From Gammaproteobacteria bacterium (GTDB lineage: Bacteria; Pseudomonadota; Gammaproteobacteria; CBDBNL01; JAAOII01): a DNA stretch of 64,000 bases. The number at the start of each line of letters is the position of its first letter. Position 1 is the first letter of the stretch. Positions 7,649-39,547 of the stretch are shown here, in pieces. Under the pieces are notes generated by a model. It was not told the DNA's origin. It did no database searches and saw only the letters and a program-made list of their open reading frames with translations. A program made the position numbers and the translations under genes. The stretch spans positions 960,001 to 1,024,000 of the forward strand of contig OZ242372.1 in assembly GCA_965209035.1 (NCBI GenBank), given 5' to 3'.

Positions 7649-8656
7649 TCACAATAATCGCGCCAGTTCGTTTTGCCAAAGTGCGAATTCCTCGCCCCCC
7701 GCATCTTCGGGGAAAATCGTCCGCTCCGGGATTTGTATATTCCGCGGCGAACGCGGCGCATTCATATGCTCCAAGTGATTGAGCGCACGGCGAATCGCAT
7801 CCGCATCATTGCACACCAAAAGAAAATCATTGCCGGCATCCAATGCGTCCTCAACCGCCTGTTCCATCCGATCGGGATACAGTTTCCCCACAGCCCCCAT
7901 TGTCAAATCATCGCATAGGATCGCCCTGTCATAATCCATCTCCCGTCGCAGTTTTTCTTGCAACCAAAAAGGGGAAAAAGTCGCCGCCCGATAGTCCGCT
8001 TTCGGGTAAACAACATGCGCGGTGAGCACGCCGTGCAGCGAATTCAAGCAGCGCTCAAATGCCGACAAGTCCGCCATCACTTCGGATAACTCGCGGGCAT
8101 CTTGCGGCAATTCCAGATGCGAGTCGGCACGCACCTTGCCGTGGCCGGGAAAGTGTTTGCCGATCGCGGCAACCCCGGCCGCCGCCAGACCTGCCGCATA
8201 AGCGGTCGCCAACAGAGCAACAATATCGGCATCGGCCGCAAAAGAGCGACCTCGCTTGCCACCGATGACCTCACCAAGGCGGGCGGTAACATCCAAGACA
8301 GGGGCATAATTCACATTCACCCCCGCCCGCCGCAACTCAACTCCCGCCAGTTTGCCGCAGATGCCGGCGAGAGACTGCGCCGACTCCGGGTCCCGCGCAA
8401 ACATCTTGCCAAGTTCGGCGGCGGCCGGCAACCTTGTAAAGTCCCGTAAAAATCGTTGCACTGCGCCGCCTTCGTGGTCAGCGGAAATTAGAATATCGGG
8501 ACAAACCGAGCGTGCCTCGGCGGTCAGCGCGCACAACTGCCCAAGGCTCTCATAGTTGTAGGCAAAAAGAATCAAACCACCGCTGTAAGGATGTTGCAAT
8601 CGCTCTTTCTCCTCGGCACTTAAACGAACCCCGGCGGGACTCCAAATCACTGTCAT
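7649..8656 (-). CDS. nagZ: Beta-N-acetylhexosaminidase (GH3)
   Basis: DHEGG.VQR, APVLD, KHFPGHG....DSH, DDL.M, LVCN motifs. Confidence 0.93.
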   Translation of the reverse strand: MTVIWSPAGVRLSAEEKERLQHPYSGGLILFAYNYESLGQLCALTAEARSVCPDILISADHEGGAVQRFLRDFTRLPAAAELGKMFARDPESAQSLAGICGKLAGVELRRAGVNVNYAPVLDVTARLGEVIGGKRGRSFAADADIVALLATAYAAGLAAAGVAAIGKHFPGHGKVRADSHLELPQDARELSEVMADLSAFERCLNSLHGVLTAHVVYPKADYRAATFSPFWLQEKLRREMDYDRAILCDDLTMGAVGKLYPDRMEQAVEDALDAGNDFLLVCNDADAIRRALNHLEHMNAPRSPRNIQIPERTIFPEDAGGEEFALWQNELARLL

Positions 8657-8873
8657 AATCTCTATTTTACATTTTATTGTTTGTCATGCATATGCCTTCC
8701 CTTGCCCCACCCCGCCCTGCCTTGTCCTCTCCCTGTCCGGCATCCTCCCGGCAAGGTTCCGGACGCGGGTGGTGGAATGGCGTGTCCTCACATTAAAAAG
8801 CCCATTTTTTACAAATACGCAGAGTCCAAAACTGGGACGGGTCATACAAGTTAAAGAAATAGCCGGCGAAATA

Positions 8874-8882
8874 TGGTATACT
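8874..8882 (+). promoter_or_regulatory. Possible extended -10 promoter (TGGTATACT) ahead of the six-gene array
   Basis: TGnTATACT about 30-60 nt upstream of ATG 8913/8940; motif match only. Confidence 0.3.
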
Positions 8883-8939
8883 ATAACTATTCCTTATTTA
8901 AGGAACTTTATTATGAATTCACAATTACAAAAAGAAATT

Positions 8940-10808
8940 ATGAAAATATTTGCAATAAAAACTATCAGTAGCAACTGCATTGCATGCATTGCCGCGGTCG
9001 GACAACCGGCGCGCGGCAGGATAAAGTTATTCAATCTATTATTGACAATCACTCTGTCGGTCGTCCTACTCGCCGCCTGTGGCGGTAGTGGCAGCGGTTC
9101 CGGTGGCGGTGCCCCGGACGCGGATGGGGACGGCATTGCGGATGCGAAAGATAACTGTCCGATGGTTGCCAATGATGACCAAACTAATACGGACAATGCT
9201 ACTGACGGCGGTGATGCCTGTGACCCGGATGATGACAATGATGGGGTGGAAGATACAGCGGATGACTTTCCGTTGGATGCCTGTGCGAGTGTGGACACAG
9301 ATCAAGATGGTGATCCGGATCAGTTGGTTGCCGGTTGTGACACAGACTTGGAAGAAGATCCGAACGATGACAATGATGCATTTGATGATGTGGACGAGGT
9401 GGACGACAATAACAATCGCCTCATAGAAATCCACACTTTGGATGACTTGGCACGGCTGCGCGTTGATCTGAATGGCAATGGGACGGCTGATCGGACGATC
9501 GACGGGATTACCGCTATGGGAAATACCGGCTGCCCCGACGACGGCTGTAATGGCTACGAATTGACCCGCTCGTTGAATTTTAGTGATCCGGAATCCTACG
9601 CGAACCGCAGTAAAATGGATGACTGGACAAGCGGCAGCGGCTGGCAGCCAATCGGCTCTTGCGGTGCTGTGGATAGCTGCACCGCTTATACGGCTGTGTT
9701 TGATGGTCGGGATCACACGATTGCCGATCTGTTCATTTCTGTGAGTAATAACAATGGAGTCGGATTGTTCGGCGCGTTGCGCGGCCGTCTTCAAAACTTG
9801 CATCTGTTAAATGTGGATGTGAATGGCGGTGGTGATGATGTGGGCGCACTGGTCGGCCATGGCAAGAATGCTCGTTATGAGAATCTGTCGGTTACAGGTG
9901 GCAGTGTGCTGGGTCCGTCGTCCTTCGAGGGCGTAGGCGGACTGGCCGGGGATGCTGCTTCTGCTAATATGCGCGATGTGCATGTATCCGGCGTAGATGT
10001 TGCCGGGGGGACGGATAATGGCGATAGTACTGTTGGCGGACTGATTGGGCTTGGGATTAATGTGATTATTCGCTATGCTTCTGTGTCCGGCGGCTCTGTT
10101 TCCGGGGGGCAGTCTATTGGCGGACTGATTGGGATTAGTAATAGTGCTAATATTCGCTATGCTTATGTGTCCGGCACAACGGTTGCCGGTAAGATAGGTG
10201 AGATAGGCGGGCTGCTTGGGAATGGAGCTGCTGCTAAGATTCGCTATGCATATGCGTCCGGCGTCAATATTTCTGCTGGCGGTAGAGCTGGCGGGCTGAT
10301 GGGGGCCTTTCAGCAAGAAGCAAGTCTTCGCCATACTTATGTATCCGGCGGAAATATCGAAGTTACAAGTCGTGGTGTTAATGGTGTTGGCGGACTGGCT
10401 AGCGATGCGTTGAGTTCTATCATTGGTTATTCTTATGCCGCCCCCGAACGACTGACTTCAGATTTCTCCACTAATATTGGCGGCTTGGTTGGGTTTAATC
10501 CTCCCGCCTCCGCCAATTTTTCTTATTGGGACACTGAAACCACCGGGCAGTCTGCGAGTGCCGGTGGTCTCGGCATGGGCCTGCCCACTGCCGCACTGCA
10601 ATCGCCGACTAACTTCACGGGCGTAGACAATATCTATGCCGACTGGGGTAACTTCTGGTGCGACCCAGCCACGGGCGATGAGATGGAAAGTGCCGCCGAG
10701 TTGGAGGCACCGTTCATTCGTGTCTGGGATCTGGGCACAAGTTCCCAATACCCGGCTCTGAACTGCATGCCCGGCGGTCTGGCGGCACAAGGCCGAGACA
10801 AACAATAA
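8940..10808 (+). CDS. TSP3/GLUG surface lipoprotein, array copy P1
   Basis: CIAC leader, LAAC lipobox, Gly linker, TSP3 repeats, GYELTRSLNFS, GGLIG rungs, QYPALNCMPGG cap. Start set at the ATG conserved in all six copies; ATG 8913 with aagga SD is an alternative. Confidence 0.88.
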   Translation: MKIFAIKTISSNCIACIAAVGQPARGRIKLFNLLLTITLSVVLLAACGGSGSGSGGGAPDADGDGIADAKDNCPMVANDDQTNTDNATDGGDACDPDDDNDGVEDTADDFPLDACASVDTDQDGDPDQLVAGCDTDLEEDPNDDNDAFDDVDEVDDNNNRLIEIHTLDDLARLRVDLNGNGTADRTIDGITAMGNTGCPDDGCNGYELTRSLNFSDPESYANRSKMDDWTSGSGWQPIGSCGAVDSCTAYTAVFDGRDHTIADLFISVSNNNGVGLFGALRGRLQNLHLLNVDVNGGGDDVGALVGHGKNARYENLSVTGGSVLGPSSFEGVGGLAGDAASANMRDVHVSGVDVAGGTDNGDSTVGGLIGLGINVIIRYASVSGGSVSGGQSIGGLIGISNSANIRYAYVSGTTVAGKIGEIGGLLGNGAAAKIRYAYASGVNISAGGRAGGLMGAFQQEASLRHTYVSGGNIEVTSRGVNGVGGLASDALSSIIGYSYAAPERLTSDFSTNIGGLVGFNPPASANFSYWDTETTGQSASAGGLGMGLPTAALQSPTNFTGVDNIYADWGNFWCDPATGDEMESAAELEAPFIRVWDLGTSSQYPALNCMPGGLAAQGRDKQ

Positions 10809-10871
10809 CGCAATGATCACCATTAATGATTTTCTAACTATATGATTAATCCATTACAAAAACAAACTATT

Positions 10872-12773
10872 ATGAACACATTTAAACTAAATGCTCTCAG
10901 TAACAACTGCATTGCATGCATGGCCGCGGCCGGGCAAACGGTGTGCAATGGCACAATGTTATTATTGACAATCGCCCTGTCAGTCGTCCTGCTAGCATCT
11001 TGTGGCGGCGGCGGTTCCGGCGGAGGCGGTGGTAACCCTCCACCGATAGCGGACGCGGATAAGGACGGCATTGCGGATACGGCGGATAACTGTCCCTCGG
11101 TTGCCAATGCGGACCAAAACAACACGGATTTCACGGCGGACGCAACAACGGGAGACACTCTCGGCGATGCCTGTGATCCGGACGATGACAATGACGGTGT
11201 GCATGACGCGGCGGATGACTTTCCTTTGGATGCCTGTGCAAGTGTGGACACAGATCAAGATGGTGATCCGGATCGTTTGGTCTTTGCAGACTGTGACACA
11301 GACTTGGAAGAAGATCTGAACGATGACAATGATGCATTCGATGATATAGACGAGGTGGACGACAATAACAATCGCCTCATAGAAATCCACACTTTGGATG
11401 ATTTGGCGCGGCTGCGCGTGGATCTGGATGGTAATGGGACCGCGGACCGGACGATTGCCGGGATTACCGCTATGGGAAATACCGGCTGTCCCGCCGACGG
11501 CTGTAATGGCTACGAATTGACTCGCTCGTTGAATTTTAGCGATCCGGATTCCTACGCGAACCGCAGTAAGATGAATGACTGGACAAGCGGCAGCGGCTGG
11601 CAGCCAATCGGCTCTTGCGGTGCTGCGGATAGCTGCACCGCTTACACGGCGGTGTTTGATGGTCGGGATCACACGATTGCCGATCTGTTCATTTCTGTGA
11701 GTAATGACAATGGAGTCGGATTGTTTGGCGCGTTGCGCGGCCGTCTTCAAAACTTGCATCTGTTAAATGTGGATGTGAATGTCAATGGCGGTGGTGATGA
11801 TGTGGGCGGACTGGTCGGCAATGGCAAGAATGCTCGTTATGAGAATCTGTCGGTTACAGGTGGCAGTGTGCTGGGTTCGTCGTCCTTTCAAGGTGTAGGC
11901 GGGCTGGCCGGGGATGCTGCTTCGTCTAATATGAACAATGTGCATGTATCCGGCGTAGATGTTACCGGGGAGACTACGGCTCTGGGTGCGGGTATTGTTG
12001 GCGGGCTGATTGGAAATGGACAGTCTGTTACTATTCGCTATGCTTCTGTATCCGGCGGACATGTTTCCGGGAGGAATAATGTTGGCGGATTGATTGGGTT
12101 CGGTCGTTCCGCTAATATTCGCTATGCTTCTGTATCCGGCATAACGGTTGCCGGTGAGAAGACTAGTATAGGCGGGCTGATTGGGAATGCAGATCCTGCT
12201 AATATTCGCTATGCATATGCGTCCGGCGTAATTATTTCTGCTGGCGGTAGAGTTGGCGGGCTGATTGGGAACTTTCAGGATGGAGCAGATATTCGCCATG
12301 CTTATGTGTCCGGCGGAAATATCGAAGCTACAAGTGGTGGTATTAATGGTGTTGGCGGCCTGATTGGCGATGAGAGGAGTTCTATAATTTATTATTCATA
12401 TGTTGCCTCCGGACGACTGACTTCAGATGCCTCCACTAATATTGGCGGCTTGGTTGGGTTCAATTCTCTTGCCTCCGCCAATTCTTCTTATTGGGACACT
12501 CGAACCACCGGTCAGTCTGCGAGTGCCGGTGGTCTCGGCACGGGCCTGCCCACCGCCGCACTGCAATCGCCGACTAACTTCACGGGTGCGGATAATATCT
12601 ATGCCGACTGGGGTAACTTCTGGTGCGACCCGAATACGGGCGACGAGATGGAAAGTGCCACCGAATTGGAGGATCCTTTTGTTCGTGTCTGGGATCTCGG
12701 GAACAGCACACAATATCCGGCTCTGAACTGCATGCCCGGCGGCCTGGCTGCACAAGGCCGAGACAAACAATAA
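10872..12773 (+). CDS. TSP3/GLUG surface lipoprotein, array copy P2
   Basis: Same architecture; LASC lipobox; alternative start 10842. Confidence 0.88.
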   Translation: MNTFKLNALSNNCIACMAAAGQTVCNGTMLLLTIALSVVLLASCGGGGSGGGGGNPPPIADADKDGIADTADNCPSVANADQNNTDFTADATTGDTLGDACDPDDDNDGVHDAADDFPLDACASVDTDQDGDPDRLVFADCDTDLEEDLNDDNDAFDDIDEVDDNNNRLIEIHTLDDLARLRVDLDGNGTADRTIAGITAMGNTGCPADGCNGYELTRSLNFSDPDSYANRSKMNDWTSGSGWQPIGSCGAADSCTAYTAVFDGRDHTIADLFISVSNDNGVGLFGALRGRLQNLHLLNVDVNVNGGGDDVGGLVGNGKNARYENLSVTGGSVLGSSSFQGVGGLAGDAASSNMNNVHVSGVDVTGETTALGAGIVGGLIGNGQSVTIRYASVSGGHVSGRNNVGGLIGFGRSANIRYASVSGITVAGEKTSIGGLIGNADPANIRYAYASGVIISAGGRVGGLIGNFQDGADIRHAYVSGGNIEATSGGINGVGGLIGDERSSIIYYSYVASGRLTSDASTNIGGLVGFNSLASANSSYWDTRTTGQSASAGGLGTGLPTAALQSPTNFTGADNIYADWGNFWCDPNTGDEMESATELEDPFVRVWDLGNSTQYPALNCMPGGLAAQGRDKQ

Positions 12774-12835
12774 CGCAATGATTACCATTAATGATTTTGA
12801 AACTATATTACAAATCAACTACAAAAAGAACTATT

Positions 12836-14752
12836 ATGAAAATATTTAAAAGACAAACTATCAGTAGCAACTGCATTGCATGCATTGCCGCGGTCGGGCA
12901 AACAGCACGCGGCGGGACAAAGTTATTCATTCCATTCTTGACAATCGCCCTGTCGGCTGTCTGCATTGCCCTACTCGTCGCCTGTGGCGGCGGCGGTTCC
13001 GGCGGAGGCGGCGGTAACCATCCACCGATAGCGGACGCGGATGGAGACGGCATTGCGGATACGGCGGATAACTGTCCCTCGGTTGCCAATGCGGACCAAA
13101 ACAACACGGATTTCACGGCGGACGCAACAACGGGAGACACTCTCGGCGATGCCTGTGATCCGGACGATGACAATGACGGTGTGCATGACGCGGCGGATGA
13201 CTTTCCTTTGGATGCCTGTGCGAGTGTGGACACCGATAAAGATGGTGATCCGGATCGTTTGGTTTCTGCAGACTGTGACACAGACTTGGAAGAAGATCTG
13301 AACGATGACAATGACGCGTTCAATGATGTGGACGATCTGGACGACAATAACAATCGCCTCATAGAAATCCACACTTTGGATGACTTGGCGCGGCTGCGCG
13401 TGGATCTGAATGGCAATGGGACGGCTGATCGGACGATTGCCGGGATTACCGCTATGGGAAATACGGGCTGTCCTGACAGCGGCTGTAATGGCTACGAATT
13501 GACCCGCTCGTTGAATTTTAGCGATCCGGATTCCTACGCGAACCGCAGTAAGATGGATGACTGGACAAGCGGCAGCGGCTGGCAGCCAATCGGCTCTTGC
13601 GGTGCTGCGGATAGTTGCACCGCTTATACGGCGGTGTTTGATGGACGGGATCACACGATTGCCAATCTGTTCATTTCTGTGAGTAATGACAATGGAGTCG
13701 GATTGTTTGGCGCATTTCGCGGCCGTCTTCAAAACTTGCATCTGTTAAATGTGGATGTGAATGTGAATGGAGATGGTGATGATGTGGGCGCACTGGTAGG
13801 CCATGGCAAGAATGCCCGTTATGAGAATCTGTCGGTTACGGGTGGCCGTGTGCTGGGTCCGTCGTCCTTCGAAGGTGTAGGCGGACTGGCCGGAGATGCT
13901 GTTTCTGCTAATATGAGTTATGTGCATGTATCCGGCGTAGATGTTGCCGGGGGGACGGATAATGGCGATAGTACCGTTGGCGGACTGATTGGAGATGGGC
14001 GGTCTGCTAATATTCGCTATGCATCTGTGTCCGGCGGCTCTGTGTCCGGAGGGCAGAATGTCGGCGGACTGATTGGGAATGGAGATTCTGCTAATATTCG
14101 CTATGCATCTGTGTCCGGCATGACGATTCCCGGTGAGAGTACTAATATAGGCGGACTGATTGGGAATGGAGCTGCTGCTAAGATTCGCTATGCATATGCG
14201 TCCGACGTAAATATTTCTGCTGGCGGTAGAGTTGGCGGGCTGATTGGGATCTTTCAGCAAGGAGCAGATCTTCGCCATGCTTATGTGTCCGGTGGAAATA
14301 TCGAAGCTACAAGTCGTGGTATTAATGGTGTTGGCGGACTGGCTAGCGATGCGTCGAGTTCTATCATTGGTTATTCTTATGTTGCCTCCGGACGAGTTAC
14401 TTCAGATGCCTCCACTAATATTGGCGGCTTGGTTGGGTTTAATCCTCCCGCCTCCGCCAATTTTTCTTATTGGGACACTGAAACCACCGGGCAGTCTGCG
14501 AGTGCCGGTGGTCTCGGCACGGGTCTGCCCACTGCCGCACTGCAATCGCCGACCAACTTCACGGGTGCGGATAATATCTATGCCGACTGGGGTAACTTCT
14601 GGTGCGACCCAAATACGGGCGACGAGATGGAAAGTGCCGCCGAGTTGGATGCGCCTTTCATTCGTGTCTGGGATCTGGGCACAAGTTCCCAATATCCGGC
14701 TCTGAACTGCATGCCCGGCGGTCTGGCGGCACAAGGCCGAGACAAACAATAA
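12836..14752 (+). CDS. TSP3/GLUG surface lipoprotein, array copy P3
   Basis: Same architecture; LVAC lipobox; ORF open from 12791. Confidence 0.88.
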   Translation: MKIFKRQTISSNCIACIAAVGQTARGGTKLFIPFLTIALSAVCIALLVACGGGGSGGGGGNHPPIADADGDGIADTADNCPSVANADQNNTDFTADATTGDTLGDACDPDDDNDGVHDAADDFPLDACASVDTDKDGDPDRLVSADCDTDLEEDLNDDNDAFNDVDDLDDNNNRLIEIHTLDDLARLRVDLNGNGTADRTIAGITAMGNTGCPDSGCNGYELTRSLNFSDPDSYANRSKMDDWTSGSGWQPIGSCGAADSCTAYTAVFDGRDHTIANLFISVSNDNGVGLFGAFRGRLQNLHLLNVDVNVNGDGDDVGALVGHGKNARYENLSVTGGRVLGPSSFEGVGGLAGDAVSANMSYVHVSGVDVAGGTDNGDSTVGGLIGDGRSANIRYASVSGGSVSGGQNVGGLIGNGDSANIRYASVSGMTIPGESTNIGGLIGNGAAAKIRYAYASDVNISAGGRVGGLIGIFQQGADLRHAYVSGGNIEATSRGINGVGGLASDASSSIIGYSYVASGRVTSDASTNIGGLVGFNPPASANFSYWDTETTGQSASAGGLGTGLPTAALQSPTNFTGADNIYADWGNFWCDPNTGDEMESAAELDAPFIRVWDLGTSSQYPALNCMPGGLAAQGRDKQ

Positions 14753-14811
14753 CGCAAGGATTACCATTCATTATTTTAGAACGATATTACAAATCAACTA
14801 CAAAAAAAATT

Positions 14812-16707
14812 ATGAAAATATTTAAAGCACAAACTATCAGTAACAACTGCATTGCATGCATGGCCGCGGCCGGGCAAACGGTGCGCAATGGCACAATGTT
14901 ATTATTGACAATCGCCCTGTCAGTCGTCCTGCTAGCATCTTGTGGCGGCAGCGGTTCCGGCGGAGGCGGTGGTAACCCTCCACCGATAGCGGACGCGGAT
15001 AAGGACGGCATTGCGGATACGGCGGATAACTGTCCCTCGGTTGCCAATGCGGACCAAAACAACACGGATTTCACGGCGGACGCAACAACGGGAGACACTC
15101 TCGGCGATGCCTGTGATCCGGACGATGACAATGATGGCGTGAATGACGCGGCGGATGCGTATCCTTTGGATGCCTGTGCAAGTGTGAACTCGGATGGCGA
15201 TCTAATGCCGGATCGTTTGGTTGCCGGTTGTGACACAGACTTGGAAGAAGATCTAAACGATGACAATGATGCATTCGATGATATAGACGAGGTGGACGAC
15301 AATGGTAACGGCCTCATAGAAATCCATACTTTGGATGACTTGGCGCGGCTGCGCGTTGACCTGGATGGTAATGGGACGGCTGACCGGACGATTGCCGGGA
15401 TTACCGCTATGGGAAATACCGGCTGCCCCGACGACGGCTGTAATGGCTACGAATTGACTCGCTCGTTGAATTTTAGCGATGAGACATCCTACGCGAACCG
15501 CAGTAAGATGGATGACTGGACAAGCGGCAGTGGTTGGAATCCAATCGGTTCTTGCGGTTCTCCGGATAGTTGCACCGCTTATACGGCGGTGTTTGATGGT
15601 CGGGATCACACGATTGCCAATCTGTTCATTTCTGTGAGTAATAACAATGGAGTGGGATTGTTTGGCGCATTTCGTGGCCGGCTTCAAAACTTGCATCTGT
15701 TAAATGTGAATGTGAATGTGAATGGTGGTGGTAATGATGTGGGCGCACTGGTAGGCCATGGCAGGAATGCTCGTTATGAGAATCTGTCGGTTACGGGTGG
15801 CAGTGTGATGGGTCCGTCGTCCTTCGATGGTGTAGGCGGACTGGCCGGGGATGCTGTTTTTGCTAATATGCGCGATGTGCATGCACTCGGCATAGATGTT
15901 GCCGGGGGGACATTTAATAATGCTAATAGTGTTGGCGGACTGATTGGAGATGGGCGGTCTGCGATTATTCGCTATGCATCTGTGTCCGGCGGCTCTGTTT
16001 CCGGGAGGCAAAATGTCGGCGGACTGATTGGGACTGGGAGTCCTGTTAATATTCGCTATGCTTATGTGTCCGTCCTAACGGTCGCCGGCATTCGTGATAT
16101 AGGCGGGCTGATTGGGATTGGGAGTGGTGGTTCTAATATTCGCTATGTATATGCGTCCGGCGTCAATATTTCTGCTGGCGATAGAACTGGCGGGCTGATA
16201 GGGGGATTTCAGAATGCAGATCTTCGCCATGCTTATGTGTCCGGCGGAAATATCGAATCTACAAGTGGTAGTTCTACTGGTACGGGCGGACTGACTGGCG
16301 ATGGGTTGAACTCTATCATTAATTATACTTATGCCGCCCCCGAACGACTGACTGCAATTGTCACCACTAATCTTAACGGCTTGATTGGGGCTACCGCACA
16401 TTCCGCCGCCGCTGATTCTTCTTATTGGGACACTGAAACCACCGGGCAGCCTGCGAGTGTCGGTGGTCGCAGCATGGGTCTGCCCACCGCCGCACTGCAA
16501 TCGCCGACCAACTTCACGGGGGCGGATAATATCTATGCCGACTGGGGTAACTTCTGGTGCGACCCGAATACGGGCGATGAGATGGAAAGTGCCACCGAGT
16601 TGGAGGATCCTTTTGTTCGTGTCTGGGATCTCGGGAACAGCACACAATATCCGGCTCTGAACTGCATGCCCGGCGGTCTGGCGGCACAAGGCCGAGACAA
16701 ACAATAA
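14812..16707 (+). CDS. TSP3/GLUG surface lipoprotein, array copy P4
   Basis: Same architecture; LASC lipobox; the ORF-track start 14602 overlaps P3 and is unlikely. Confidence 0.88.
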   Translation: MKIFKAQTISNNCIACMAAAGQTVRNGTMLLLTIALSVVLLASCGGSGSGGGGGNPPPIADADKDGIADTADNCPSVANADQNNTDFTADATTGDTLGDACDPDDDNDGVNDAADAYPLDACASVNSDGDLMPDRLVAGCDTDLEEDLNDDNDAFDDIDEVDDNGNGLIEIHTLDDLARLRVDLDGNGTADRTIAGITAMGNTGCPDDGCNGYELTRSLNFSDETSYANRSKMDDWTSGSGWNPIGSCGSPDSCTAYTAVFDGRDHTIANLFISVSNNNGVGLFGAFRGRLQNLHLLNVNVNVNGGGNDVGALVGHGRNARYENLSVTGGSVMGPSSFDGVGGLAGDAVFANMRDVHALGIDVAGGTFNNANSVGGLIGDGRSAIIRYASVSGGSVSGRQNVGGLIGTGSPVNIRYAYVSVLTVAGIRDIGGLIGIGSGGSNIRYVYASGVNISAGDRTGGLIGGFQNADLRHAYVSGGNIESTSGSSTGTGGLTGDGLNSIINYTYAAPERLTAIVTTNLNGLIGATAHSAAADSSYWDTETTGQPASVGGRSMGLPTAALQSPTNFTGADNIYADWGNFWCDPNTGDEMESATELEDPFVRVWDLGNSTQYPALNCMPGGLAAQGRDKQ

Positions 16708-16770
16708 CGCAATGATCACCATTAATGATTTTCTAACTATATGATTAATCCATTACAAAAACAAACTATT

Positions 16771-18588
16771 ATGAACACATTTAAACTAAATGCTCTCAGT
16801 AACAACTGCATTGCATGCATTGCCGCGGTCGGCCAACCGGCACGCAGCGGTATCATTTTATTATTGACAATCGCCTTGTCGGTCGTCCTACTCACCTCCT
16901 GCGGCGGTGGTTCCGGCGGAGGCGGCGGTAACCATCCACCGATAGCGGACGCGGATAAGGACGGCATTGCGGATACGGCGGATAACTGTCCCTCGGTTGC
17001 CAATGCGGACCAAAACAACACAGATTTGGCGGCGGATGCAACAACGGGAGACGCTCTGGGCGATGCCTGTGACCCGGACGATGACAATGACGGTGTGCAT
17101 GACGCGGCGGATGACTTTCCTTTGGATGCCTGTGCGAGTGTGGACACGGATGGCGATAAGCTGCCGGATAGTTTGGTTGCCGCCGACTGTGAAACAGACT
17201 TGACAGCAGATCCGGACGATGACAATGATACAGTCGATGATGTGGACGATCTGGACGACAATAACAATCGCCTCATAGAAATCCACACTTTGGATGACTT
17301 GGCACGGCTGCGCGTTGATCTGAATGGCAATGGGACGGCTGATCGGACGATCGACGGGATTACCGCTATGGGAAATACCGGCTGCCCCGACGACGGCTGT
17401 AATGGCTACGAATTGACCCGCTCGTTGAATTTTAGTGATCCGGATTCCTATGACGATGACAGCGGTAGCAGCGATAAGATGGATGCCTGGACAGATCGCA
17501 GCGGCAGCGGTTGGCAGCCCATCGGCTCCTGCAGTGATGCAATTACTTGCACCCCTTATTCGGCGATGTTTGATGGTCGGGGTTATGTTGTTGCCGATCT
17601 GTTTATCAATGCGAGTGATGATACGGATGGTGTGGGGTTATTTGCTGCGTTCAATGGCAGTATGCAAAACTTACATCTCTTGGATGCGAATGTCCATGGC
17701 GGTGACTCTAATGTGGGTCTGTTAGTGGGTCAGGGTGTGAATGCTCGCTTTGAGAATCTGTCGGTTTCAGGAATCTTGATGAGTCCGCAGGCTACTACTG
17801 TGGGTGGCCTGGCCGGCGATGCGGGAGGGGCTATGATTCGTCATTCTTATGCATCCGATATTGTTGTTTTCGGTCTTGCTAGCGTGGGCGGTCTGGCTGG
17901 CAACGGTGCTAAATCTCAGATTCGCTATTCCTATGTCATCGATACCGCTGTGTTCGCCGGGCAAAGTAGTGACGAATCTACGGTCGGTGGTCTGGTCGGC
18001 GATGGGTTCGATGCTATTATTCTGGCTGCGTATGTGTTAGATTCTTCTGTTTTCGGTATAGGTAGAGGGATCGGTGGTCTGGTCGGCAATGGGCGAGAAG
18101 TTAGTATTACTGCTGCGTATGTGTCCGGCGGAAGCGTTGCCGGGGGGAGCGAGAGCGATGAAGTCGGTGGTCTGTTAGGTCGAGGGATCAAGGCAAAAAT
18201 TCGTTATTCTTATGTAGCTGTCAGGGTTTCCTCGCTTAGAACAGTAGCTCCTATTACCGGCGGCTTGTTCGGTGCTGCTCCGGCGATAAAAATCGACGCT
18301 TCTTATTCGGATACTCAAGTCACCACACAGTCAACCAGTCACCCTTCTGTTGATGTTTCCGGTGTGGATAAGAACACGATAGAATTACAATCGCCGAGCG
18401 ACTTCACCGGGACAGATAATATTTACGCCGATTGGGGCAATTTTTGGTGCGACCCGAATACGGGCGAAGTGGTGGAAAGTACAACCGAGTTGGCTCCTCC
18501 ATTAAGGCGTCTGTGGGATCTCGGAACGGCCGAACAATATCCCGCGCTCAACTGCACACCCGGCGGTGTGGAAAGGCAGCGGCGATAA
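16771..18588 (+). CDS. TSP3/GLUG surface lipoprotein, array copy P5 (chimeric)
   Basis: LTSC lipobox; N-half like P1-P4, C-half like P6; alternative start 16741. Confidence 0.88.
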   Translation: MNTFKLNALSNNCIACIAAVGQPARSGIILLLTIALSVVLLTSCGGGSGGGGGNHPPIADADKDGIADTADNCPSVANADQNNTDLAADATTGDALGDACDPDDDNDGVHDAADDFPLDACASVDTDGDKLPDSLVAADCETDLTADPDDDNDTVDDVDDLDDNNNRLIEIHTLDDLARLRVDLNGNGTADRTIDGITAMGNTGCPDDGCNGYELTRSLNFSDPDSYDDDSGSSDKMDAWTDRSGSGWQPIGSCSDAITCTPYSAMFDGRGYVVADLFINASDDTDGVGLFAAFNGSMQNLHLLDANVHGGDSNVGLLVGQGVNARFENLSVSGILMSPQATTVGGLAGDAGGAMIRHSYASDIVVFGLASVGGLAGNGAKSQIRYSYVIDTAVFAGQSSDESTVGGLVGDGFDAIILAAYVLDSSVFGIGRGIGGLVGNGREVSITAAYVSGGSVAGGSESDEVGGLLGRGIKAKIRYSYVAVRVSSLRTVAPITGGLFGAAPAIKIDASYSDTQVTTQSTSHPSVDVSGVDKNTIELQSPSDFTGTDNIYADWGNFWCDPNTGEVVESTTELAPPLRRLWDLGTAEQYPALNCTPGGVERQRR

Positions 18589-18648
18589 CGCAATGATTAC
18601 CCTTAATGATTTTGGAACTATATTACAAATCAACTACAAAAAGAAATT

Positions 18649-20454
18649 ATGAGCATACTTATTAAAAGACAAACTATCAGTAGCAACTGCATTGCATGCA
18701 TTGCCGCGGTCGGGCAACCGGCACGCGGCCCAATGTTATTATTGACAATCGCCTTGTCGGTTGCCCTACTCGCCGCTTGTGGTGGCGGAGGTGGTGGTTC
18801 CGGCGGGGGAGCGAACACCGACTTCGATGGAGACGGAATTGAGAACTCGGCGGATGCCTGTCCGCGCGGCGATACGGACTGGACTTCCAATGCATCTACG
18901 GACAATGATGGCGATGGCTGTCGCGACGACAGCAACGAGGATTTGGACGATGACAATGATGGTGTGGAAGACACAGCGGATGCGTTTCAGAGGGATCGCT
19001 GCGCGAGTGTGGACACGGATCGCGATGGTCTGCCGGATAATTTGGTGACCGGTTGCCAAACAACCTTGAGGGCGGACCCGGACGATGACAATGATGAGAT
19101 CTTGGATGCGGCAGATGTGGACAAAAATGGTAACAGCCTCATAGAAATCCGCACTTTGGATGATTTGGTACGGCTGCGCGATGATCTCAATGGCAATGGA
19201 ACAGATGATGGGAGGTTTCCCGAGATTATCGCTATGGGTTCTGTGGGTTGCCCGAGTTCCGACTGTACCGGCTACGAATTGACTCGCTCGTTGAATTTTA
19301 GCGATCCGGATTCCTATGACGATGACAGCGGTAGCAGCGATAAGATGGATGCCTGGACAGATCGCAGCGGCAGCGGTTGGCAGCTCATCGGCTCCTGCAG
19401 TGATGCAACTACTTGCACCCCTTATTCGGCAGTGTTTGATGGTCGGGGTTATGTTGTTGCCGATCTGTTTATCAATGCAAGTGATGATACGGATGGTGTG
19501 GGGTTATTTGCTGCGTTCAATGGCAGTATGCAAAACCTGCATCTCTTGGATGCGAATGTCCATGGCGGTGACTCTAATGTGGGTCTGTTGGTGGGTCAGG
19601 GTGTGAATGCTCGCTTTGAGAATCTGTCGGTTTCAGGAATCCTGATGAGTCCGCAGGCTACTACTGTGGGTGGCCTGGCCGGCGATGCGGGAGGGGCTAT
19701 GATGCGTCATTCTTATGCATCCAATATTGTTGTTTCCGGTCTTGCTAACGTGGGCGGTCTGGCTGGCAACGGTGCTAAATCTCAGATTCGCCATTCCTAT
19801 GTCATCGATGCCGCTGTGTTCGCCGGGCAAAGTAGTGACGAATCTACGGTCGGTGGTCTGGTCGGCGATGGGTTCGATGCTATTATTCTGGCTGCGTATG
19901 TGTTAGATTCTTCTGTTTTCGGTACACACAGATCGATCGGTGGACTGGTCGGCAATGGGCAAAGAGTTAATATTACTGCTGCGTATGTGTCCGGCGGAAG
20001 TGTGTCCGGGGGGAGTCTGAGCAATGACGTCGGCGGTCTGATGGGTCAGGGAATTCAAGCTAAAATTCGTTATTCTTATGCAGCTGTCAATGTTTCCACG
20101 CTTAGAACAGTATCTCCTGTTATCGGCGGCTTGTTCGGCACTGCTCCGGGGACAACAATCGATGCTTCTTATTCGGATACTCAAGTCACCACACAGTCAA
20201 CCAGTCAACCTTCTGTTGATGTTTCCGGTGTGGATAAAAACACAACAGACTTACAATCACCGACCGACTTCACCGGGACAGATAATATCTACGCCGACTG
20301 GGGTAACCTCCGGTGCGATCCAAATACGGGCGAAGTGGTGGAAAGTACGACCGGGTTGGATCCTTCATTTAGACGTCTGTGGGATCTCGGAACGGCCGAA
20401 CAATATCCCGCGCTCAACTGCACACCCGGCGGTCTGGCAAGGCAGAGGCAGTAA
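18649..20454 (+). CDS. TSP3/GLUG surface lipoprotein, array copy P6
   Basis: CIAC leader, LAAC lipobox, DACPRG..W TSP3 module, GLUG rungs, QYPALNCTPGG cap. Confidence 0.88.
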   Translation: MSILIKRQTISSNCIACIAAVGQPARGPMLLLTIALSVALLAACGGGGGGSGGGANTDFDGDGIENSADACPRGDTDWTSNASTDNDGDGCRDDSNEDLDDDNDGVEDTADAFQRDRCASVDTDRDGLPDNLVTGCQTTLRADPDDDNDEILDAADVDKNGNSLIEIRTLDDLVRLRDDLNGNGTDDGRFPEIIAMGSVGCPSSDCTGYELTRSLNFSDPDSYDDDSGSSDKMDAWTDRSGSGWQLIGSCSDATTCTPYSAVFDGRGYVVADLFINASDDTDGVGLFAAFNGSMQNLHLLDANVHGGDSNVGLLVGQGVNARFENLSVSGILMSPQATTVGGLAGDAGGAMMRHSYASNIVVSGLANVGGLAGNGAKSQIRHSYVIDAAVFAGQSSDESTVGGLVGDGFDAIILAAYVLDSSVFGTHRSIGGLVGNGQRVNITAAYVSGGSVSGGSLSNDVGGLMGQGIQAKIRYSYAAVNVSTLRTVSPVIGGLFGTAPGTTIDASYSDTQVTTQSTSQPSVDVSGVDKNTTDLQSPTDFTGTDNIYADWGNLRCDPNTGEVVESTTGLDPSFRRLWDLGTAEQYPALNCTPGGLARQRQ

Positions 20455-20844: not shown

Positions 20845-22554
20845 ATGAACAAAGACCAGCTACCAAGCAGGCACGTTTCCGTAGGACCGGAAAGCGCACC
20901 GCATCGCTCCTACTACTATGCGATGAAAATGACAACCGAGCAGATTAATCAGCCTTTTGTCGGCGTGGCAACCTGCTGGAACGAAGCAGCCCCCTGCAAC
21001 ATAGACCTGGCACGCCAAGCCCAGGCCGTAAAAAAAGGCGTTAACCGGGCAAAGGGAACACCGCGCGAATTCACAACCATCACGGTAACCGACGGCATCG
21101 CCATGGGACACAGCGGGATGAAGTCTTCGCTGCCGAGTCGCGATCTGATTGCGGACTCTGTTGAAATGACCATGCGCGGACACTGTTACGATGCCCTGGT
21201 CGGGCTGGCAGGATGTGACAAGTCCTTGCCGGGAATGATGATGGCAATGTGCCGCTTAAATGTCCCTTCGGTTTTTATTTACGGCGGCACCATCCTGCCC
21301 GGCCGTTACAAGGGCAAGGATGTGACCGTTGTGGATGTCTTTGAAGCGGTCGGCACCCATGCGGCCGGCAAGATGAGCGATGCCGATCTGACGGAATTGG
21401 AACAGTGTGCCTGTCCTTCCTCCGGTTCCTGCGGCGGACAATTTACGGCAAACACCATGGCATGCGTATCCGAAGCCATGGGACTTGCCATTCTCGGCTC
21501 GGCCGGCGCACCCGCCCCCTATACCTCCCGGGATGCCTATTGCGAAGCGAGCGGCGTTCTGATCATGGAGTGCATTAAAAACAACTTGCGGCCGCGCGAT
21601 ATTGTGACAAGAAAATCTTTGGAAAACGCGGCGCGCGTCGTTGCCGCATCCGGCGGCTCCACCAATGCCGGCTTGCATCTTCCCGCCATCGCGCATGAAT
21701 GCAACATTAAGTTTGATCTGAACGATGTCTGCAAAATCTTTCGCGAGACTCCTTATATTGCCGACCTCAAGCCCGCCGGCAAGTATGTTGCCAAGGATCT
21801 GTTTGAAGTCGGCGGTGTGCCCATCATTCTCAAAACACTGGCGGACGGCGGCTATCTGCACACCGATTGCATCACCGTGAACGGCAAGACGCTGGGAGAA
21901 AATTTGAGCAAGATGAAGTTTCCGTCCAATCAAGATGTCGTCATGCCGATTGACAAGCCATTTAGCATGACCGGCGGTGTGGTCGGTCTGCGAGGGAATC
22001 TGGCGCCGGAAGGTGCTATCGTCAAGATCGCCGGGATGCGGCAATTACAATTTCGCGGTCCCGCGCGCGTGTTTGACCGCGAAGAAGATGCTTTCCGGGC
22101 GGCGGAGAAGCGAGAGTATCGGGCGGGCGATGTCATCGTCATTCGTTACGAAGGGCCCAAAGGCGGCCCCGGTATGCGGGAAATGCTGGCGACCACGGCG
22201 GTACTTTCCGGCCAAGATGCCGGCGGCAAGATTGCCCTGATTACGGACGGGCGGTTTTCGGGTGGCACCCGCGGCTTTTGTGTCGGCCACATAGGACCGG
22301 AGGCCGCGATAGGCGGTCCCATCGGTCTGCTGGAAAACGGCGACATGATCCTGCTGGATGCGGAAAAAGGGATCATTTCCGTGGAACTGGACGAGACCGA
22401 GCTTGCCCGGCGCCGCAAGTTGTGGCGGGCGCGCACCAATGATTTTCAGTCCGGCGCTCTCTGGCGTTATGCTCAAACGGTCGGCCCCGCTTTTCTGGGT
22501 GCCGTCACGCATCCCGGCGCGGCCAAAGAAACTCATGTTTATGCGGACATATAA
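20845..22554 (+). CDS. ilvD: Dihydroxy-acid dehydratase
   Basis: [54 protein letters not shown]. Confidence 0.97.
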
Positions 22555-22638
22555 TGACAGAGTCATGACAGCAACACTTTGTTTTTCAAACACGGATTAG
22601 TTTATAATAAAAATAAAAAACAAGAGGTCAAAAATCAA

Positions 22639-23100
22639 ATGATAAAAAAACTCAAAAACATCGTCATCGTCCCGATGAGCGGGATACTTTTTTTAGTCGG
22701 TTCCAACAGACAAGAAGTTTGTTGTGTCCCGCCAAAAATTTCGGTTGTGCCGCAATTATTACCCCGCCCGGTTCGCACCGCAAGATCGGCAACTCTTTTT
22801 GCCGTTCTATTCTTGCTTCTGAGTGGCTGTGCTAATTTCGTGGTCCTCAGTCCGGCCGGCAGTCTGGTCCGACTCATTTCCGCGGAAGAAGCCGAAAACT
22901 GCGAAAAGATCGCCGATACCGTTGTCATGGTCGCCGCCAAAGTTGGGGTCATTCGGCGCGATCCGGAAAAAGTGCAAGTGGAAGCCCAAAACATCGCCAA
23001 GAATTCGGCACCGGATTTTGATGCCAATGCGGTTACTCCCCTAAGCGAACTGGGCGAAGATGGCAAGCAAACTTTTGGGATCTATCAATGTCCCGAATAA
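22639..23100 (+). CDS. Small lipoprotein, DUF4156-like
   Basis: LSGC lipobox, V.LS..G..V.L, C..I, A.N.A....AN.V, terminal Y.CP; start uncertain. Confidence 0.6.
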   Translation: MIKKLKNIVIVPMSGILFLVGSNRQEVCCVPPKISVVPQLLPRPVRTARSATLFAVLFLLLSGCANFVVLSPAGSLVRLISAEEAENCEKIADTVVMVAAKVGVIRRDPEKVQVEAQNIAKNSAPDFDANAVTPLSELGEDGKQTFGIYQCPE

Positions 23101-23688
23101 TTGATTGGTTTGGGGAATGATATACAATACTCCTCAGTCTTAAAAAGTGAATGTTTCATAGTGATAAAAACACAAACTAACTTTAATAACGGGTATTTCT
23201 TAGAGCCGGAGGTGATAAAGACTATTCGTGCTTTTCATGATGAAAATAAACCCCCATATCTTGTTAATAAGTTATCGGAGAAATTTGATATAGAGGGGGT
23301 TTATCTTACGGGAATGCCCGAAAATATATCGGGTTGTATTAAGAAGACGGAAACAGGAAAATATGAAATATTACTTAATAGAGATGAACACCATAATCGC
23401 AGACGCTTTACGGCCGCACACGAATTAGCCCATCTTCTGTTACACAGAGATGATATAGGAGATGGGGTAAATGATGATGTTTTGTATCGCAGCAAGCTAT
23501 CTACTTTTCAAGAGGTGCAAGCAAATCAATTGGCGGCGGATATTTTAATGCCTTTTGATAAGATTTATGCTTTACTGCAAACAGGAACAAAATTACGCGA
23601 GTTACCTTCTATTTTTGAAGTTTCAAACATAACGATGTGTATTCGTCTTGATATCAGTGAGTTTGTGCTATTTAGCCCAAATCAATAA
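23101..23688 (+). CDS. ImmA/IrrE-family (M78) metallo-endopeptidase
   Basis: ISG.I, RRRFTAAHELAH (HExxH), E.QAN.LAA.ILMP; AT-rich; true start probably a downstream GTG. Confidence 0.88.
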   Translation: MIGLGNDIQYSSVLKSECFIVIKTQTNFNNGYFLEPEVIKTIRAFHDENKPPYLVNKLSEKFDIEGVYLTGMPENISGCIKKTETGKYEILLNRDEHHNRRRFTAAHELAHLLLHRDDIGDGVNDDVLYRSKLSTFQEVQANQLAADILMPFDKIYALLQTGTKLRELPSIFEVSNITMCIRLDISEFVLFSPNQ

Positions 23689-23843
23689 AGACGATGGCTT
23701 GCAAGGATAGCCACGTATGTGCCAATTTAGAGTATTGTCCAATTATCTTCGAAGGTATGATTGCCGTTTCGTTTATAGTTCCTTAAAAAATAACAATTTA
23801 TTACTGCCACAGGGAAGCGTTTAACTTATGGCTTATATAAGAG

Positions 23844-24668
23844 ATGAATAAGTCAGTAGTGATGTACAAAAGAGAAACAGAGATAAAAATGGGGGATAAC
23901 TTTGATAAGTTCTATACGAACAATGAGGTTGTTCGCGAGTGTTTGAAGCATTTGGATATAGCATCTTATGATTTTGTTATTGAGCCGTCAGCGGGTAGCG
24001 GCGCTTTCTACCATTCCATTAATCACAAGAATAAGGTTGGTTTGGATATCAAGCCGGAGCATTGGGAAATAATCAAGCAGGATTGGTTTTCTTATGTTGT
24101 TAGCGAGGATTATAAAAATGTCTTGGTTGTGGGTAATCCTCCGTTTGGTAAGTTCCATAAGTTGTCTTCCGCATTTTTAGAGCGTGCTTTTTCTTTTGGT
24201 AATATTCAAACTGTGGGTTTTATTCTTCCCGATGTGTATAGGAAATATACAAGACAGAGAATCATACCGGATCATTGGAGGATAAAGAGCATAGTTAATA
24301 TAGGCGAGAATGCTTTTATGTTTGAGAATGAGGTAAGGCATATTCCCTGTTCCTTCTTTGTCTTTGATAAGTCAAGGGGGCGGGATTTAAGGGATAACCC
24401 TTATCAGCATGCGGACAAGGTGGATTTTTATTTTGGCACTAAGAACTATTTTGATTTATTTTTATTTGGTGCGGCACCCAAGCGGATTATAACTAATCCT
24501 AAGCCGAATAACAGAGGGCATTTTATTAAGTCCAAGATTGGGGCGGACAAGTTAATCAATAGATTACTGGCTATTAATTGGCGGGGCTTATCCGGTGCCG
24601 GCGGGGGTGTGTATTGGTTAACTCAGGGGGAGATCATCAAGCATTATTACGACGCCTACTGTGTATGA
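23844..24668 (+). CDS. Orphan amino (N6-A/N4-C) DNA methyltransferase, gamma-type motif order
   Basis: DKFYT, motif I IEPSAGSGAF, motif IV GNPPFG, FILP; AT-rich. Confidence 0.8.
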   Translation: MNKSVVMYKRETEIKMGDNFDKFYTNNEVVRECLKHLDIASYDFVIEPSAGSGAFYHSINHKNKVGLDIKPEHWEIIKQDWFSYVVSEDYKNVLVVGNPPFGKFHKLSSAFLERAFSFGNIQTVGFILPDVYRKYTRQRIIPDHWRIKSIVNIGENAFMFENEVRHIPCSFFVFDKSRGRDLRDNPYQHADKVDFYFGTKNYFDLFLFGAAPKRIITNPKPNNRGHFIKSKIGADKLINRLLAINWRGLSGAGGGVYWLTQGEIIKHYYDAYCV

Positions 24669-24800
24669 ATATACCGATTAATTTAAGAGTACATTATGCC
24701 CCGGGTTTATGCCCTTGGTCCATAATTATTTCTTAAAAAACAAATAAACAAACTATCTATTACGGCAAACTATTACAACAATTTATTACAACAAACTATT

Positions 24801-25361
24801 ATGGAAAATACAAGAAAAAATACTTTGGCGATTGACGAGCAATTCATTGAACGCTGGTCTTCTCGTCAATTTAATGGAACTGCGTTGACTGAAAACGAAC
24901 TGGCGCAGATCTTTGAAGCCGCCCGTTGGTCGCCCTCTTGCTTTAACGAGCAACCGTGGTTCTTTCTCCTGCCCGAAAACCCGGCGCGACATGCAAAATT
25001 TTTATCTCTTCTTATGGAAGGAAACCGTGCTTGGGTGGAAAAGGCGGGACTGCTGTGTTACCAAATATCCGCCCGTCACTTTCGCCACAACGACAAACCC
25101 AATCGTCACTATGCGTATGACGCGGGTGCGGCCTGGATGGCACTGGCTTTGCGCGCCCATTCCATGGGTCTCAGTGCCCACGCCATGGCCGGATTTGACG
25201 CGGAGAAATCCTATGCCGTTTTGGGAGTGGACAAAAGCAAATACGAAGTTCTGTCCGCCATCGCCATCGGTTGGCCGCTTGAAGAAGCCAAACAGACCGA
25301 AGAGCGCACGGAACGCAAATCACTTTCTTTGGTTCACGGCACCAAGATGCCGGCGGGTTGA
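24801..25361 (+). CDS. Nitroreductase family protein
   Basis: RWSSR.F, FEAARWSPSCFNEQPW.F, YDAGAAW, HAMAGFD, AIG. Confidence 0.93.
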   Translation: MENTRKNTLAIDEQFIERWSSRQFNGTALTENELAQIFEAARWSPSCFNEQPWFFLLPENPARHAKFLSLLMEGNRAWVEKAGLLCYQISARHFRHNDKPNRHYAYDAGAAWMALALRAHSMGLSAHAMAGFDAEKSYAVLGVDKSKYEVLSAIAIGWPLEEAKQTEERTERKSLSLVHGTKMPAG

Positions 25362-27360: not shown

Positions 27361-27410
27361 TAAAGGATAAAGGATAAAGGATAAACGATAAACGATAAAG
27401 GATAAACTAT
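27361..27410. repeat. 7-bp microsatellite (GATAAAG/C) immediately upstream of pstC
   Basis: taaagga taaagga taaagga taaacga taaacga taaagga taaacta. Confidence 0.9.
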
Positions 27411-31358: not shown

Positions 31359-31404
31359 AAGAGGGTAAACCCGAAAAAACAATAAGCAATTAAATAATTA
31401 ACGA

Positions 31405-32187: not shown

Positions 32188-32206
32188 TTTAAGATAAAAT
32201 AAAACA

Positions 32207-38398: not shown

Positions 38399-38402
38399 CG
38401 TC

Positions 38403-39473: not shown

Positions 39474-39547
39474 ACTATTTCATAGCCTGCGGGATAGGAC
39501 ACCAAAATATTATAACTGACCGGGAATGTAAGCACGCCTGATTGTAT

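Follow-up and report, generated by a model that had tools for sequence, protein, structure and literature searches.

A tandem array of TSP3-stalked GLUG beta-helix lipoproteins: a probably co-transcribed cluster of one large family in a gammaproteobacterium

Positions 8940 to 20454 of the stretch analyzed here (the window, 64,000 nt of the forward strand of contig OZ242372.1, positions 960,001 to 1,024,000, in the Gammaproteobacteria bacterium assembly GCA_965209035.1) hold six paralogous genes, which we call P1 to P6. The array is one cluster of a hugely expanded family of GLUG beta-helix lipoproteins on a TSP3 stalk, and the exchange of segments among its members is ordinary intra-array gene conversion. 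The reading that we favor, and consider probable while well short of certain, is that the cluster arose by tandem duplication within a very large, lineage-specific lipoprotein family, is probably transcribed as a unit and would serve as a co-expressed binding repertoire. The family is new, but the evolutionary process behind it is of a known kind, and no new mechanism of variation is involved.

The array, its proteins and their family

P1 to P6 are complete head-to-tail open reading frames (ORFs) of 601 to 638 aa, each with its own start, leader and stop, and the spacers between them measure, in order, 63, 62, 59, 63 and 60 nt. A preliminary description of this locus had reported six intact paralogs with spacers of about 60 nt and no obvious terminators, and on all of these points it was right. 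The genes and spacers are as follows.

8940 to 10808, plus strand: P1, predicted lipoprotein of 622 aa with leader, TSP3 repeats and capped GLUG beta-helix
10872 to 12773, plus strand: P2, paralog of 633 aa
12836 to 14752, plus strand: P3, paralog of 638 aa
14812 to 16707, plus strand: P4, paralog of 631 aa, assigned by alignment
16771 to 18588, plus strand: P5, paralog of 605 aa, P5/P6 subtype, combining a 5′ end of the P2 type with an internal tract of the P1 type
18649 to 20454, plus strand: P6, paralog of 601 aa, the most divergent (58% aa identity to P1)
10809 to 10871, plus strand: spacer P1-P2, identical to spacer P4-P5 (16708 to 16770)
12774 to 12835, 14753 to 14811 and 18589 to 18648, plus strand: spacers P2-P3, P3-P4 and P5-P6

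On one side the array is flanked by nagZ (7649 to 8656, minus strand) and on the other by ilvD (20845 to 22554).

All six proteins begin with a leader of about 47 aa, in which a basic n-region precedes a conserved stretch (SSNCIACIAAxGQ) and a hydrophobic core leads up to a lipobox at about residue 45 (LAAC, LASC, LVAC, LASC, LTSC and LAAC in P1 to P6; consensus L-[AVT]-[AS]-C), after which comes a Gly/Ser run. The genome encodes signal peptidase II (a Peptidase_A8 match at 657345 to 657767 of contig C1) and one secretin. With both the lipobox and LspA present, the six products are predicted lipoproteins, presumably of the outer membrane or surface. Pfam was run on P1, P2, P3, P5 and P6 and returned only Glug and TSP_3, with no peptidase, G5 or LPXTG parts. 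Glug (PF07581, cut-off 20.5 bits) was found in P1 (21.5), P2 (37.6), P3 (22.3) and P5 (32.8), and had no match in P6 at E ≤ 0.01; TSP_3 (PF02412, cut-off 25 bits) was found in P2 (28.5), P3 (29.7) and P5 (27.5), with values below the cut-off in P1 (19.8) and P6 (21.6). When a profile of all six proteins was searched, thrombospondin-2 and COMP were matched in their type 3 repeats with E values from 1.6e-8 to 2.9e-7, the match to thrombospondin-2 (E 1.6e-8) lying at positions 58 to 170; the stalk is a candidate for calcium binding. In NCBIfam, sub-threshold matches alone were obtained, to MtsC, invert_tail, SslE and fusolisin N-termini. Taken together, each product would consist of an unusually long conserved lipoprotein leader, a Gly/Ser tether, an Asp-rich calcium-binding TSP3 stalk and a capped right-handed GLUG beta-helix as its head.

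The fold was examined with AlphaFold2, run on mature P1 with a 40-sequence alignment, which gave a confident model (pLDDT 87.9, pTM 0.82) in which a poorly ordered tether is followed by the TSP3 stretch, an N-cap, a beta-helix of about ten turns and a C-cap. When this model was compared by VIA-align with 48,161 chains, the best matches were the IgA1 protease of G. haemolysans (7uvk, Z 29.3), a Bacteroides "putative IgA1 protease" (3n6z, Z 28.9) and, in third place, the IgA1 protease of S. pneumoniae (7jgj, Z 26.2). These three alignments have a root-mean-square deviation of 3.1 to 3.2 Å over 272 to 285 residues and span model residues 103 to 572; lyases, hydrolases and tailspikes reached Z values of at most 20. 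Foldseek ranked 3n6z first, but with a weak E value (7e-5), and the clear match came from VIA-align. As described in PMC7695701, the beta-helix of the S. pneumoniae protease (residues 781 to 1070) is non-catalytic and shifts by 10 Å, gating the active site; it belongs to the N-terminal domain, which makes contact with the IgA1 Fab. No M26 zinc metalloprotease catalytic domain was found by Pfam in the five proteins scanned, and the structural match is confined to the beta-helix domain of the protease. Judged by the modeled fold, the P1 to P6 products look like tethered, non-enzymatic binding proteins. The preliminary description had called them outer-surface binding proteins, and the tethered, non-enzymatic character fits that proposal, while surface exposure and binding remain its inferred part.

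The same fold raises a rival reading, namely that P1 to P6 are envelope-tethered polysaccharide lyases, hydrolases or epimerases whose paralogs cover different glycans. Many beta-helix carbohydrate enzymes and phage depolymerases do match the model at Z 14 to 20, Foldseek lists the lacto-N-biosidase LnbX (E 0.016), TSP3 repeats figure in the genome paper on the polysaccharide degrader Saccharophagus degradans (PMC2386152), and nagZ adjoins the array. However, the non-catalytic IgA1 protease helix and its Bacteroides homolog score 6 to 9 Z above the enzymes, the 40-sequence alignment shows G, L, F, I, Y and N in its invariant or nearly invariant helix columns and lacks a conserved pair of acidic residues in the helix, and the part of the helix that would form a groove is the part that evolves fastest. 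Moreover, the nagZ product is a cytoplasmic recycling enzyme, and the gene lies on the opposite strand. An enzyme repertoire is thus, in our estimate, unlikely.

The scale of the family became apparent when a hidden Markov model (HMM) of the six proteins was run against all stop-to-stop ORFs of at least 150 aa in the genome, which comprises 2,243,995 nt in 2 contigs and is 92.7% complete. The family amounts to 86 ORFs and 243,393 nt, or 10.8% of the genome. At E ≤ 1e-30 there are 78 ORFs (229,305 nt) in 48 loci, and 17 of these loci are same-strand clusters, together holding 47 genes; no other cluster has as many genes as the array of six. By a model of the C-terminal cap, the modules number 92. 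The members range from fragments (e.g., ORFs of 156 to 353 aa) to giant multi-module ORFs of up to 3843 aa, and many members outside the array carry fn3 domains. Contig C2 (65,717 nt), which has a GC content of 54.0% as compared with 49.2%, has no family member by the HMM search and may be a plasmid or a foreign contig. Three further members lie within the window itself, the last two of them as a tandem pair.

189 to 4238: family member of 1349 aa with a Glug match
56854 to 60567: family member of 1237 aa with a Glug match
60639 to 62897: family member of 752 aa with a Glug match

Beyond this genome, the family is present in all 4 of the other genomes of the same GTDB family (at least 24 to 60 matches each), and it was found in none (0/26) of 26 genomes drawn from 26 other families of the class. 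Among metagenome cluster representatives the module is widespread: 37,658 carry it at E ≤ 1e-3, of which 3227 reach E ≤ 1e-30, and giant proteins with several modules are frequent among them. Named carriers are metagenome-assembled genomes (MAGs) labeled Gammaproteobacteria, Candidatus Porisulfidus, Dehalococcoidia, Leptonemataceae, Spirochaetia and Latescibacterota; the matches listed in the ESM Atlas are "hypothetical protein" clusters only. Porisulfidus is tied to a sponge-associated metagenome in PMC12988363, and a host-associated habitat for the source bacterium is a guess. In the open-access library searched we found no description of a TSP3-GLUG lipoprotein family or of its expansion. 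The architecture had initially been taken to be one for which no such system was known; as one of 17 clusters in its genome, and with so many metagenomic representatives, its being undescribed in kind is not supported.

Mosaic structure and the location of variation

Overall nucleotide identity is 85 to 90% among P1 to P4 and 84% between P5 and P6, and it falls to 66 to 73% between the two groups. These averages conceal a patchwork, which was mapped in 120-nt windows along the alignment of the six genes. P2 and P5 are 99% identical across the spacer and the gene start. In the first TSP3 block (windows starting at columns 240 to 420) P2 is 98 to 100% identical to P4 and 96 to 100% identical to P3, and P1 is at just 75 to 77%. 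P5 is 96 to 100% identical to P1 in windows starting at columns 540 to 660 and is otherwise P6-like, again at 96 to 100%, in windows starting at columns 720 to 1320. The C-terminal caps pair as P1/P3, P2/P4 and P5/P6 in the protein alignment, and the first two pairs recur at the 3′ end of the nucleotide alignment. The first TSP3 block of P3 goes with P2, P4 and P5 (91 to 100% nt identity) and not with P1 (75 to 77%). Both the cap pairs and the placement of this block had been noted before and are borne out by the alignment.

Formal tests agree. The pairwise homoplasy index (PHI), over 482 informative sites, is 0.153, as against 0.254 ± 0.003 after permutation, and none of 1000 permutations was as low. 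Maximum-likelihood trees of eight segments conflict, with P2+P5 at 100% bootstrap in columns 0 to 125, P2+P4 at 99% in columns 125 to 360 and P5+P6 at 100% from column 720 on, and in approximately unbiased (AU) tests the incompatible segment topologies are rejected on one another's data, many at p<0.001. One tree for all segments, which would have spoken against exchange, is therefore not what the data give, and the segment exchange proposed from the letters alone is real. For 12 of the 15 gene pairs the longest identical tract was not equaled in any of 2000 permuted site orders; for the remaining pairs the p values are 0.001 (P1-P4), 0.0005 (P1-P6) and 0.05 (P1-P2). The value for P5/P6 is inflated, because the permutation ignores rate differences along the gene. 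The identical tracts, of 110 to 190 nt, join otherwise divergent copies such as P1 and P5, and the principal ones are these.

9400 to 9592 (P1) and 17252 to 17444 (P5), plus strand: conversion tract, identical; 0/2000 permutations, in genes that agree at 297 of 1038 polymorphic columns
16708 to 16820 (P5 spacer and 5′ end) and 10809 to 10921 (P2), plus strand: conversion tract, identical; P2+P5 clade at 100%
11011 to 11239, plus strand: TSP3 block of P2, of which 11011 to 11194 equals P4 14951 to 15134 and 11064 to 11239 equals P3 13046 to 13221
10466 to 10575 (P1) and 14410 to 14519 (P3), plus strand: identical tract immediately 5′ of the C-terminal cap
17945 to 18058 (P5) and 19811 to 19924 (P6), plus strand: identical tract

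When each array gene was compared by blastn with the whole genome, tracts of at least 93% identity were found inside the array only; outside it there were 8 short matches at 85 to 90%, and the best match of at least 200 nt was at 80 to 84%. Exchange is therefore overwhelmingly a local process, which is what homologous recombination between tandem repeats would be expected to give. The odd TSP3 block of P1 is nearer to dispersed family members (87%) than to P2 to P4, as judged from one short blastn match. Other arrays of the family are likewise patchwork: in the array at about 1198 kb, window identities run from 70% to 100% and PHI gives 0/500, and for the array at about 1575 kb PHI gives 3/500. 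On the reading that we favor, unequal crossing-over would produce new gene copies, RecA-type gene conversion between neighbors would move tracts of about 100 to 200 nt, and amino acid substitutions would then build up in the loops of the distal helix turns.

The variation that distinguishes the proteins is concentrated in one part of the head. Pairwise ratios of nonsynonymous to synonymous substitution (dN/dS, NG86) among P1 to P4 are 0.71 to 1.79 in the variable helix region (alignment columns 380 to 560), 0.13 to 0.64 in the stalk, N-cap, first turns and C-cap, and 0.36 to 0.84 in the leader. The residues that vary among P1 to P4 are distributed along the model as follows.

Model residues 121 to 288: 23 of 168 residues variable
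Model residues 289 to 480: 89 of 192 residues variable
Model residues 505 to 576: 8 of 72 residues variable

Within the helix, non-strand residues vary more often than strand residues (56/115 versus 51/186, Fisher p 3e-4). The pattern fits selection for diversity on exposed loops, although relaxed constraint may also account for it.

The same chromosomal position in relatives gives a rough date for the array. In one genome of a sister genus (G003), the nagZ-ilvD locus (C1:190500 to 219500) is occupied by a pair of ORFs (2929 and 4343 aa) that share 11 C-terminal cap modules between them; in another (G002; C1:775000 to 795500) it is made up of three (1737, 1794 and 768 aa); in a third related genome (G001), nagZ and ilvD are unlinked. 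Thus, the locus is not invariant among relatives; invariance would have told against the proposed diversification. In the sister genus the modules are fused into giant ORFs in place of single-module lipoprotein genes. In a tree of the C-terminal caps, which is a quick tree with 51 of its 107 forks unresolved, P1 to P4 form one clade (99) and P5 and P6 another (99), both among modules of their own genome, and the modules of G002 and G003 group elsewhere, in part as cross-genome pairs. From this placement it follows that the six single-module genes arose, or were homogenized, after the genera split.

Co-expression, switching and the rival readings

Whether the six variants are displayed together or one at a time is a question on which the control signals bear. 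A promoter-like element stands before P1.

8868 to 8884, plus strand: promoter-like element GAAATATGGTATACTAT, with an extended -10 TGgTATACT at 8874 to 8882, 55 nt upstream of the P1 start; predicted promoter
C1:1200464, 1202481, 1204686, 1207070, 1293295 and 2139766: further sites of the 17-nt element

This 17-nt element, GAAATATGGTATAYTAT, contains an extended -10-like TGnTATACT and has 14 sites in the genome at up to 2 mismatches, every one of which (14/14) lies immediately upstream of a family gene. Within the array it occurs before P1 only, and P2 to P6 are each preceded by a conserved spacer sequence of about 60 nt, unlike the element upstream of P1. In contrast, 4 of the 5 genes of the 1198-kb array have their own copy. 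The leader is common to 16 family genes across dispersed arrays, includes an invariant NCIACIAA stretch, and is conserved even at synonymous sites. The element and the leader may be a lineage-specific regulatory or export cassette, and the leader might mark a dedicated route of export or surface display. A search of the four related genomes for the leader peptide gave nothing but one weak match (E 0.009), and a scan of metagenome contigs with a 20-nt conserved leader word gave 10 loci, all of them low-GC (25 to 43%) chance matches with no family ORFs, so that no close strain was found.

Between 8400 and 21000 there are 7 terminator-like sites, none in a spacer, a total not above that of shuffled sequence (mean 10.6); a sigma-70 scan is uninformative (13 sites, versus 14.5 ± 3.5 in shuffles). 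The 390 nt after P6 (20455 to 20844) contain several GC-rich hairpins with CTTCGG loops, e.g., GGCACTTCGGTGCC, with no T tract; these may be repetitive extragenic palindrome (REP)-like elements or a non-canonical terminator. Given a promoter-like element before P1 only and no terminators between the genes, all six variants are most likely displayed at once, and P1 to P6 are, as far as sequence can tell, more likely to be one transcription unit, co-expressed rather than switched. Co-displayed in this way, they could offer a broad binding repertoire for host, matrix or particle ligands, as opposed to one-at-a-time antigenic switching.

Several points weigh against this reading and should be kept in view. 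For expression, co-transcription is predicted from motif placement, and a spacer site at 12782 to 12809 scores 9/12 as sigma-70-like; with all spacers conserved, internal promoters are possible. For function, generic beta-helix enzymes also match the P1 model (Z 14 to 20), the surface exposure of a gammaproteobacterial lipoprotein is unpredictable from its sequence, and a host-associated lifestyle is a guess based solely on how other family-carrying MAGs are named. For selection, a dN/dS near 1 could reflect relaxed constraint in place of positive selection, and pairwise NG86 estimates ignore recombination. Lastly, the population data on the array consist of short contigs and 54 reads, with no record that spans it.

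Programmed antigenic or phase variation, in which a dedicated recombination-fed system changes the variant presented, as in pilE/pilS, vlsE or the vsp/vlp genes of Mycoplasma, is the alternative closest to the preliminary description, which had proposed a recombination-fed surface-diversification system. A conserved 5′ leader and 3′ cap around a variable core do favor cassette-like exchange, nucleotide-level conservation of the leader extends to 16 genes of dispersed arrays, the conversion tracts are recent, with identity over 110 to 190 nt, and dN/dS in the variable region is about 1 or more. The machinery, however, was looked for and not found. There are no silent cassettes, since each of the six full-length genes is complete with its own start and leader, and no promoterless or truncated cassette is present. 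No homopolymer or short-repeat tract of the phase-variation type is present at the locus, where the repeats are the GLUG units of 84 to 87 nt and short chance arrays and the longest A run in any array spacer is 8; nor is there an inverted-repeat switch. No recombinase or invertase is encoded among the 37 flanking ORFs, and the 92.7%-complete genome has no match to the reverse transcriptase (RVT_1) that a diversity-generating retroelement would require. That other arrays are equally mosaic is just what general homologous recombination predicts. Hence, recombination stands as a fact of the locus, a distinct "system" is not supported, and we think programmed variation quite improbable.

About equally improbable, in our judgment, is neutral concerted evolution, by which the copies would be redundant, the mosaic and the raised dN/dS would be side effects of duplication and conversion under relaxed constraint, and there would be no adaptive repertoire. 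Any tandem array at 85 to 90% identity can be expected to undergo gene conversion, dN/dS scatters around 1 rather than far above it, and some family members are fragments, such as the short ORFs already mentioned. Set against these are six intact ORFs, strong purifying selection in the caps and stalk (dN/dS 0.13 to 0.45), the concentration of variation in loops, and the retention of the family, which takes up 10.8% of a 2.24-Mb genome and is kept by all 4 related genomes.

As for assembly, the short reads bear on the array in pieces: three runs of one sample contain 66 to 72% of the window's words, as short contigs, in which joints with sides of 20 to 34 nt are repeat cross-matches, and of the 54 reads from a fourth run, 10 reached an identity of ≥99%. 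No RNA run was found to contain the window. That the mosaics are chimeras of mis-joined paralog reads is hardly credible, for although the array is repetitive and the contigs of the three runs break inside it with none spanning, independent short contigs match both flanks and several unique internal pieces exactly, the assembly, of just 2 contigs, resolves 17 such clusters, other arrays show like patchwork, and reading frames are intact across the junctions.

The flanking ORFs scanned include radA, pdxH, nagZ, ilvD, a pst-like transporter, mutS and leuS. After ilvD, a low-GC stretch (22579 to 25361, 46%) encodes a DUF4156 lipoprotein, an IrrE/ImmA-like M78 peptidase, a nitroreductase and a 274-aa ORF that has an NPPF motif and no Pfam match and is methyltransferase-like by eye; it may be a small acquired island. 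The permease genes of the pst-like phosphate ABC transporter (27409 to 32947) are unusually long (750 and 566 aa) and precede those for the ATPase and PhoU. The lowest GC of the window (42.5%) is at 37542 to 40088, directly upstream of mutS, where small ORFs with no Pfam match accompany an N6/N4 DNA methylase with a RAMA domain (38403 to 39473). As a clue to the taxon, uptake sequences were rejected: those of the Neisseria type gave 0 matches for nine variants, and a 9-mer Haemophilus-type word gave 11.

Comparison with known repertoires

The devotion of about a tenth of a 2.24-Mb genome to one tethered beta-helix family signals its importance for the bacterium's way of life, and the loops of the helix evolve at or above the neutral rate. 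The family unites a calcium-binding stalk known from animal matrix proteins with the substrate-holding domain of IgA1 proteases, and it has no characterized member. With six close variants in one probable operon, the array is a compact and testable model of how duplication, gene conversion and selection might build a binding repertoire. A bolder extension, which we put forward as speculation and think unlikely, is a symbiont "coat" system in which some 90 interchangeable beta-helix heads would be under the control of a lineage-specific cassette, formed by the promoter-like element and the long CIAC-containing leader of 16 genes, with recombination within and between arrays and positive selection on loops tuning the heads to host matrix or immune receptors. 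If true, it would be a bacterial counterpart of the PE/PPE or var-type repertoires in an uncultured gammaproteobacterium of 2.2 Mb.

At the level of domains, the nearest likeness is to the N-terminal beta-helix of the M26 IgA1 proteases (7jgj/6xja, 7uvk) and to BACOVA_03286 (3n6z), which have the same capped right-handed GLUG beta-helix. Unlike in the proteases, the helix of the array proteins is carried by itself on a TSP3 stalk and lipoprotein tether, the organism is Gram-negative, and the helix is multiplied about 90-fold in one genome. The Asp-rich DxDxDG-type repeats of the stalk resemble the type 3 repeats of thrombospondins and COMP (PF02412; 1yo8, 2rhp, 3fby), and the cell-cohesion protein MtsC of Myxococcus (NF047638) matches weakly over the TSP3 stretch (E 4e-8), scoring 32.5 bits where the cut-off is 350. 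In contrast to both, the array proteins use a short run of repeats as a stalk and lack the lectin-like C-terminal domain and MYXO-CTERM.

At the level of repertoires, the variable lipoproteins of Mycoplasma (Vlp, Vsp, Vsa) and Borrelia (Vsp, Vlp, VlsE) share with the array a highly conserved 5′ region and leader, a variable mature part, tandem clusters and segment exchange. In those families the switch is a poly-A promoter tract, a site-specific inversion, or silent cassettes feeding one expression site, whereas in the array no switch was found, the copies are all complete, and they are probably co-expressed. The PE/PPE proteins of mycobacteria are a large lineage-specific surface or secreted family that takes up about a tenth of the genome, and sponge symbionts carry eukaryote-like repeat proteins. 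Both resemble the present case in the massive expansion of one modular family (here 10.8% of the genome). A further likeness lies in domains held in common with proteins of the animal matrix, in the array family TSP3 and, in many of its members elsewhere, fn3. From both, the array family differs in fold and anchoring.

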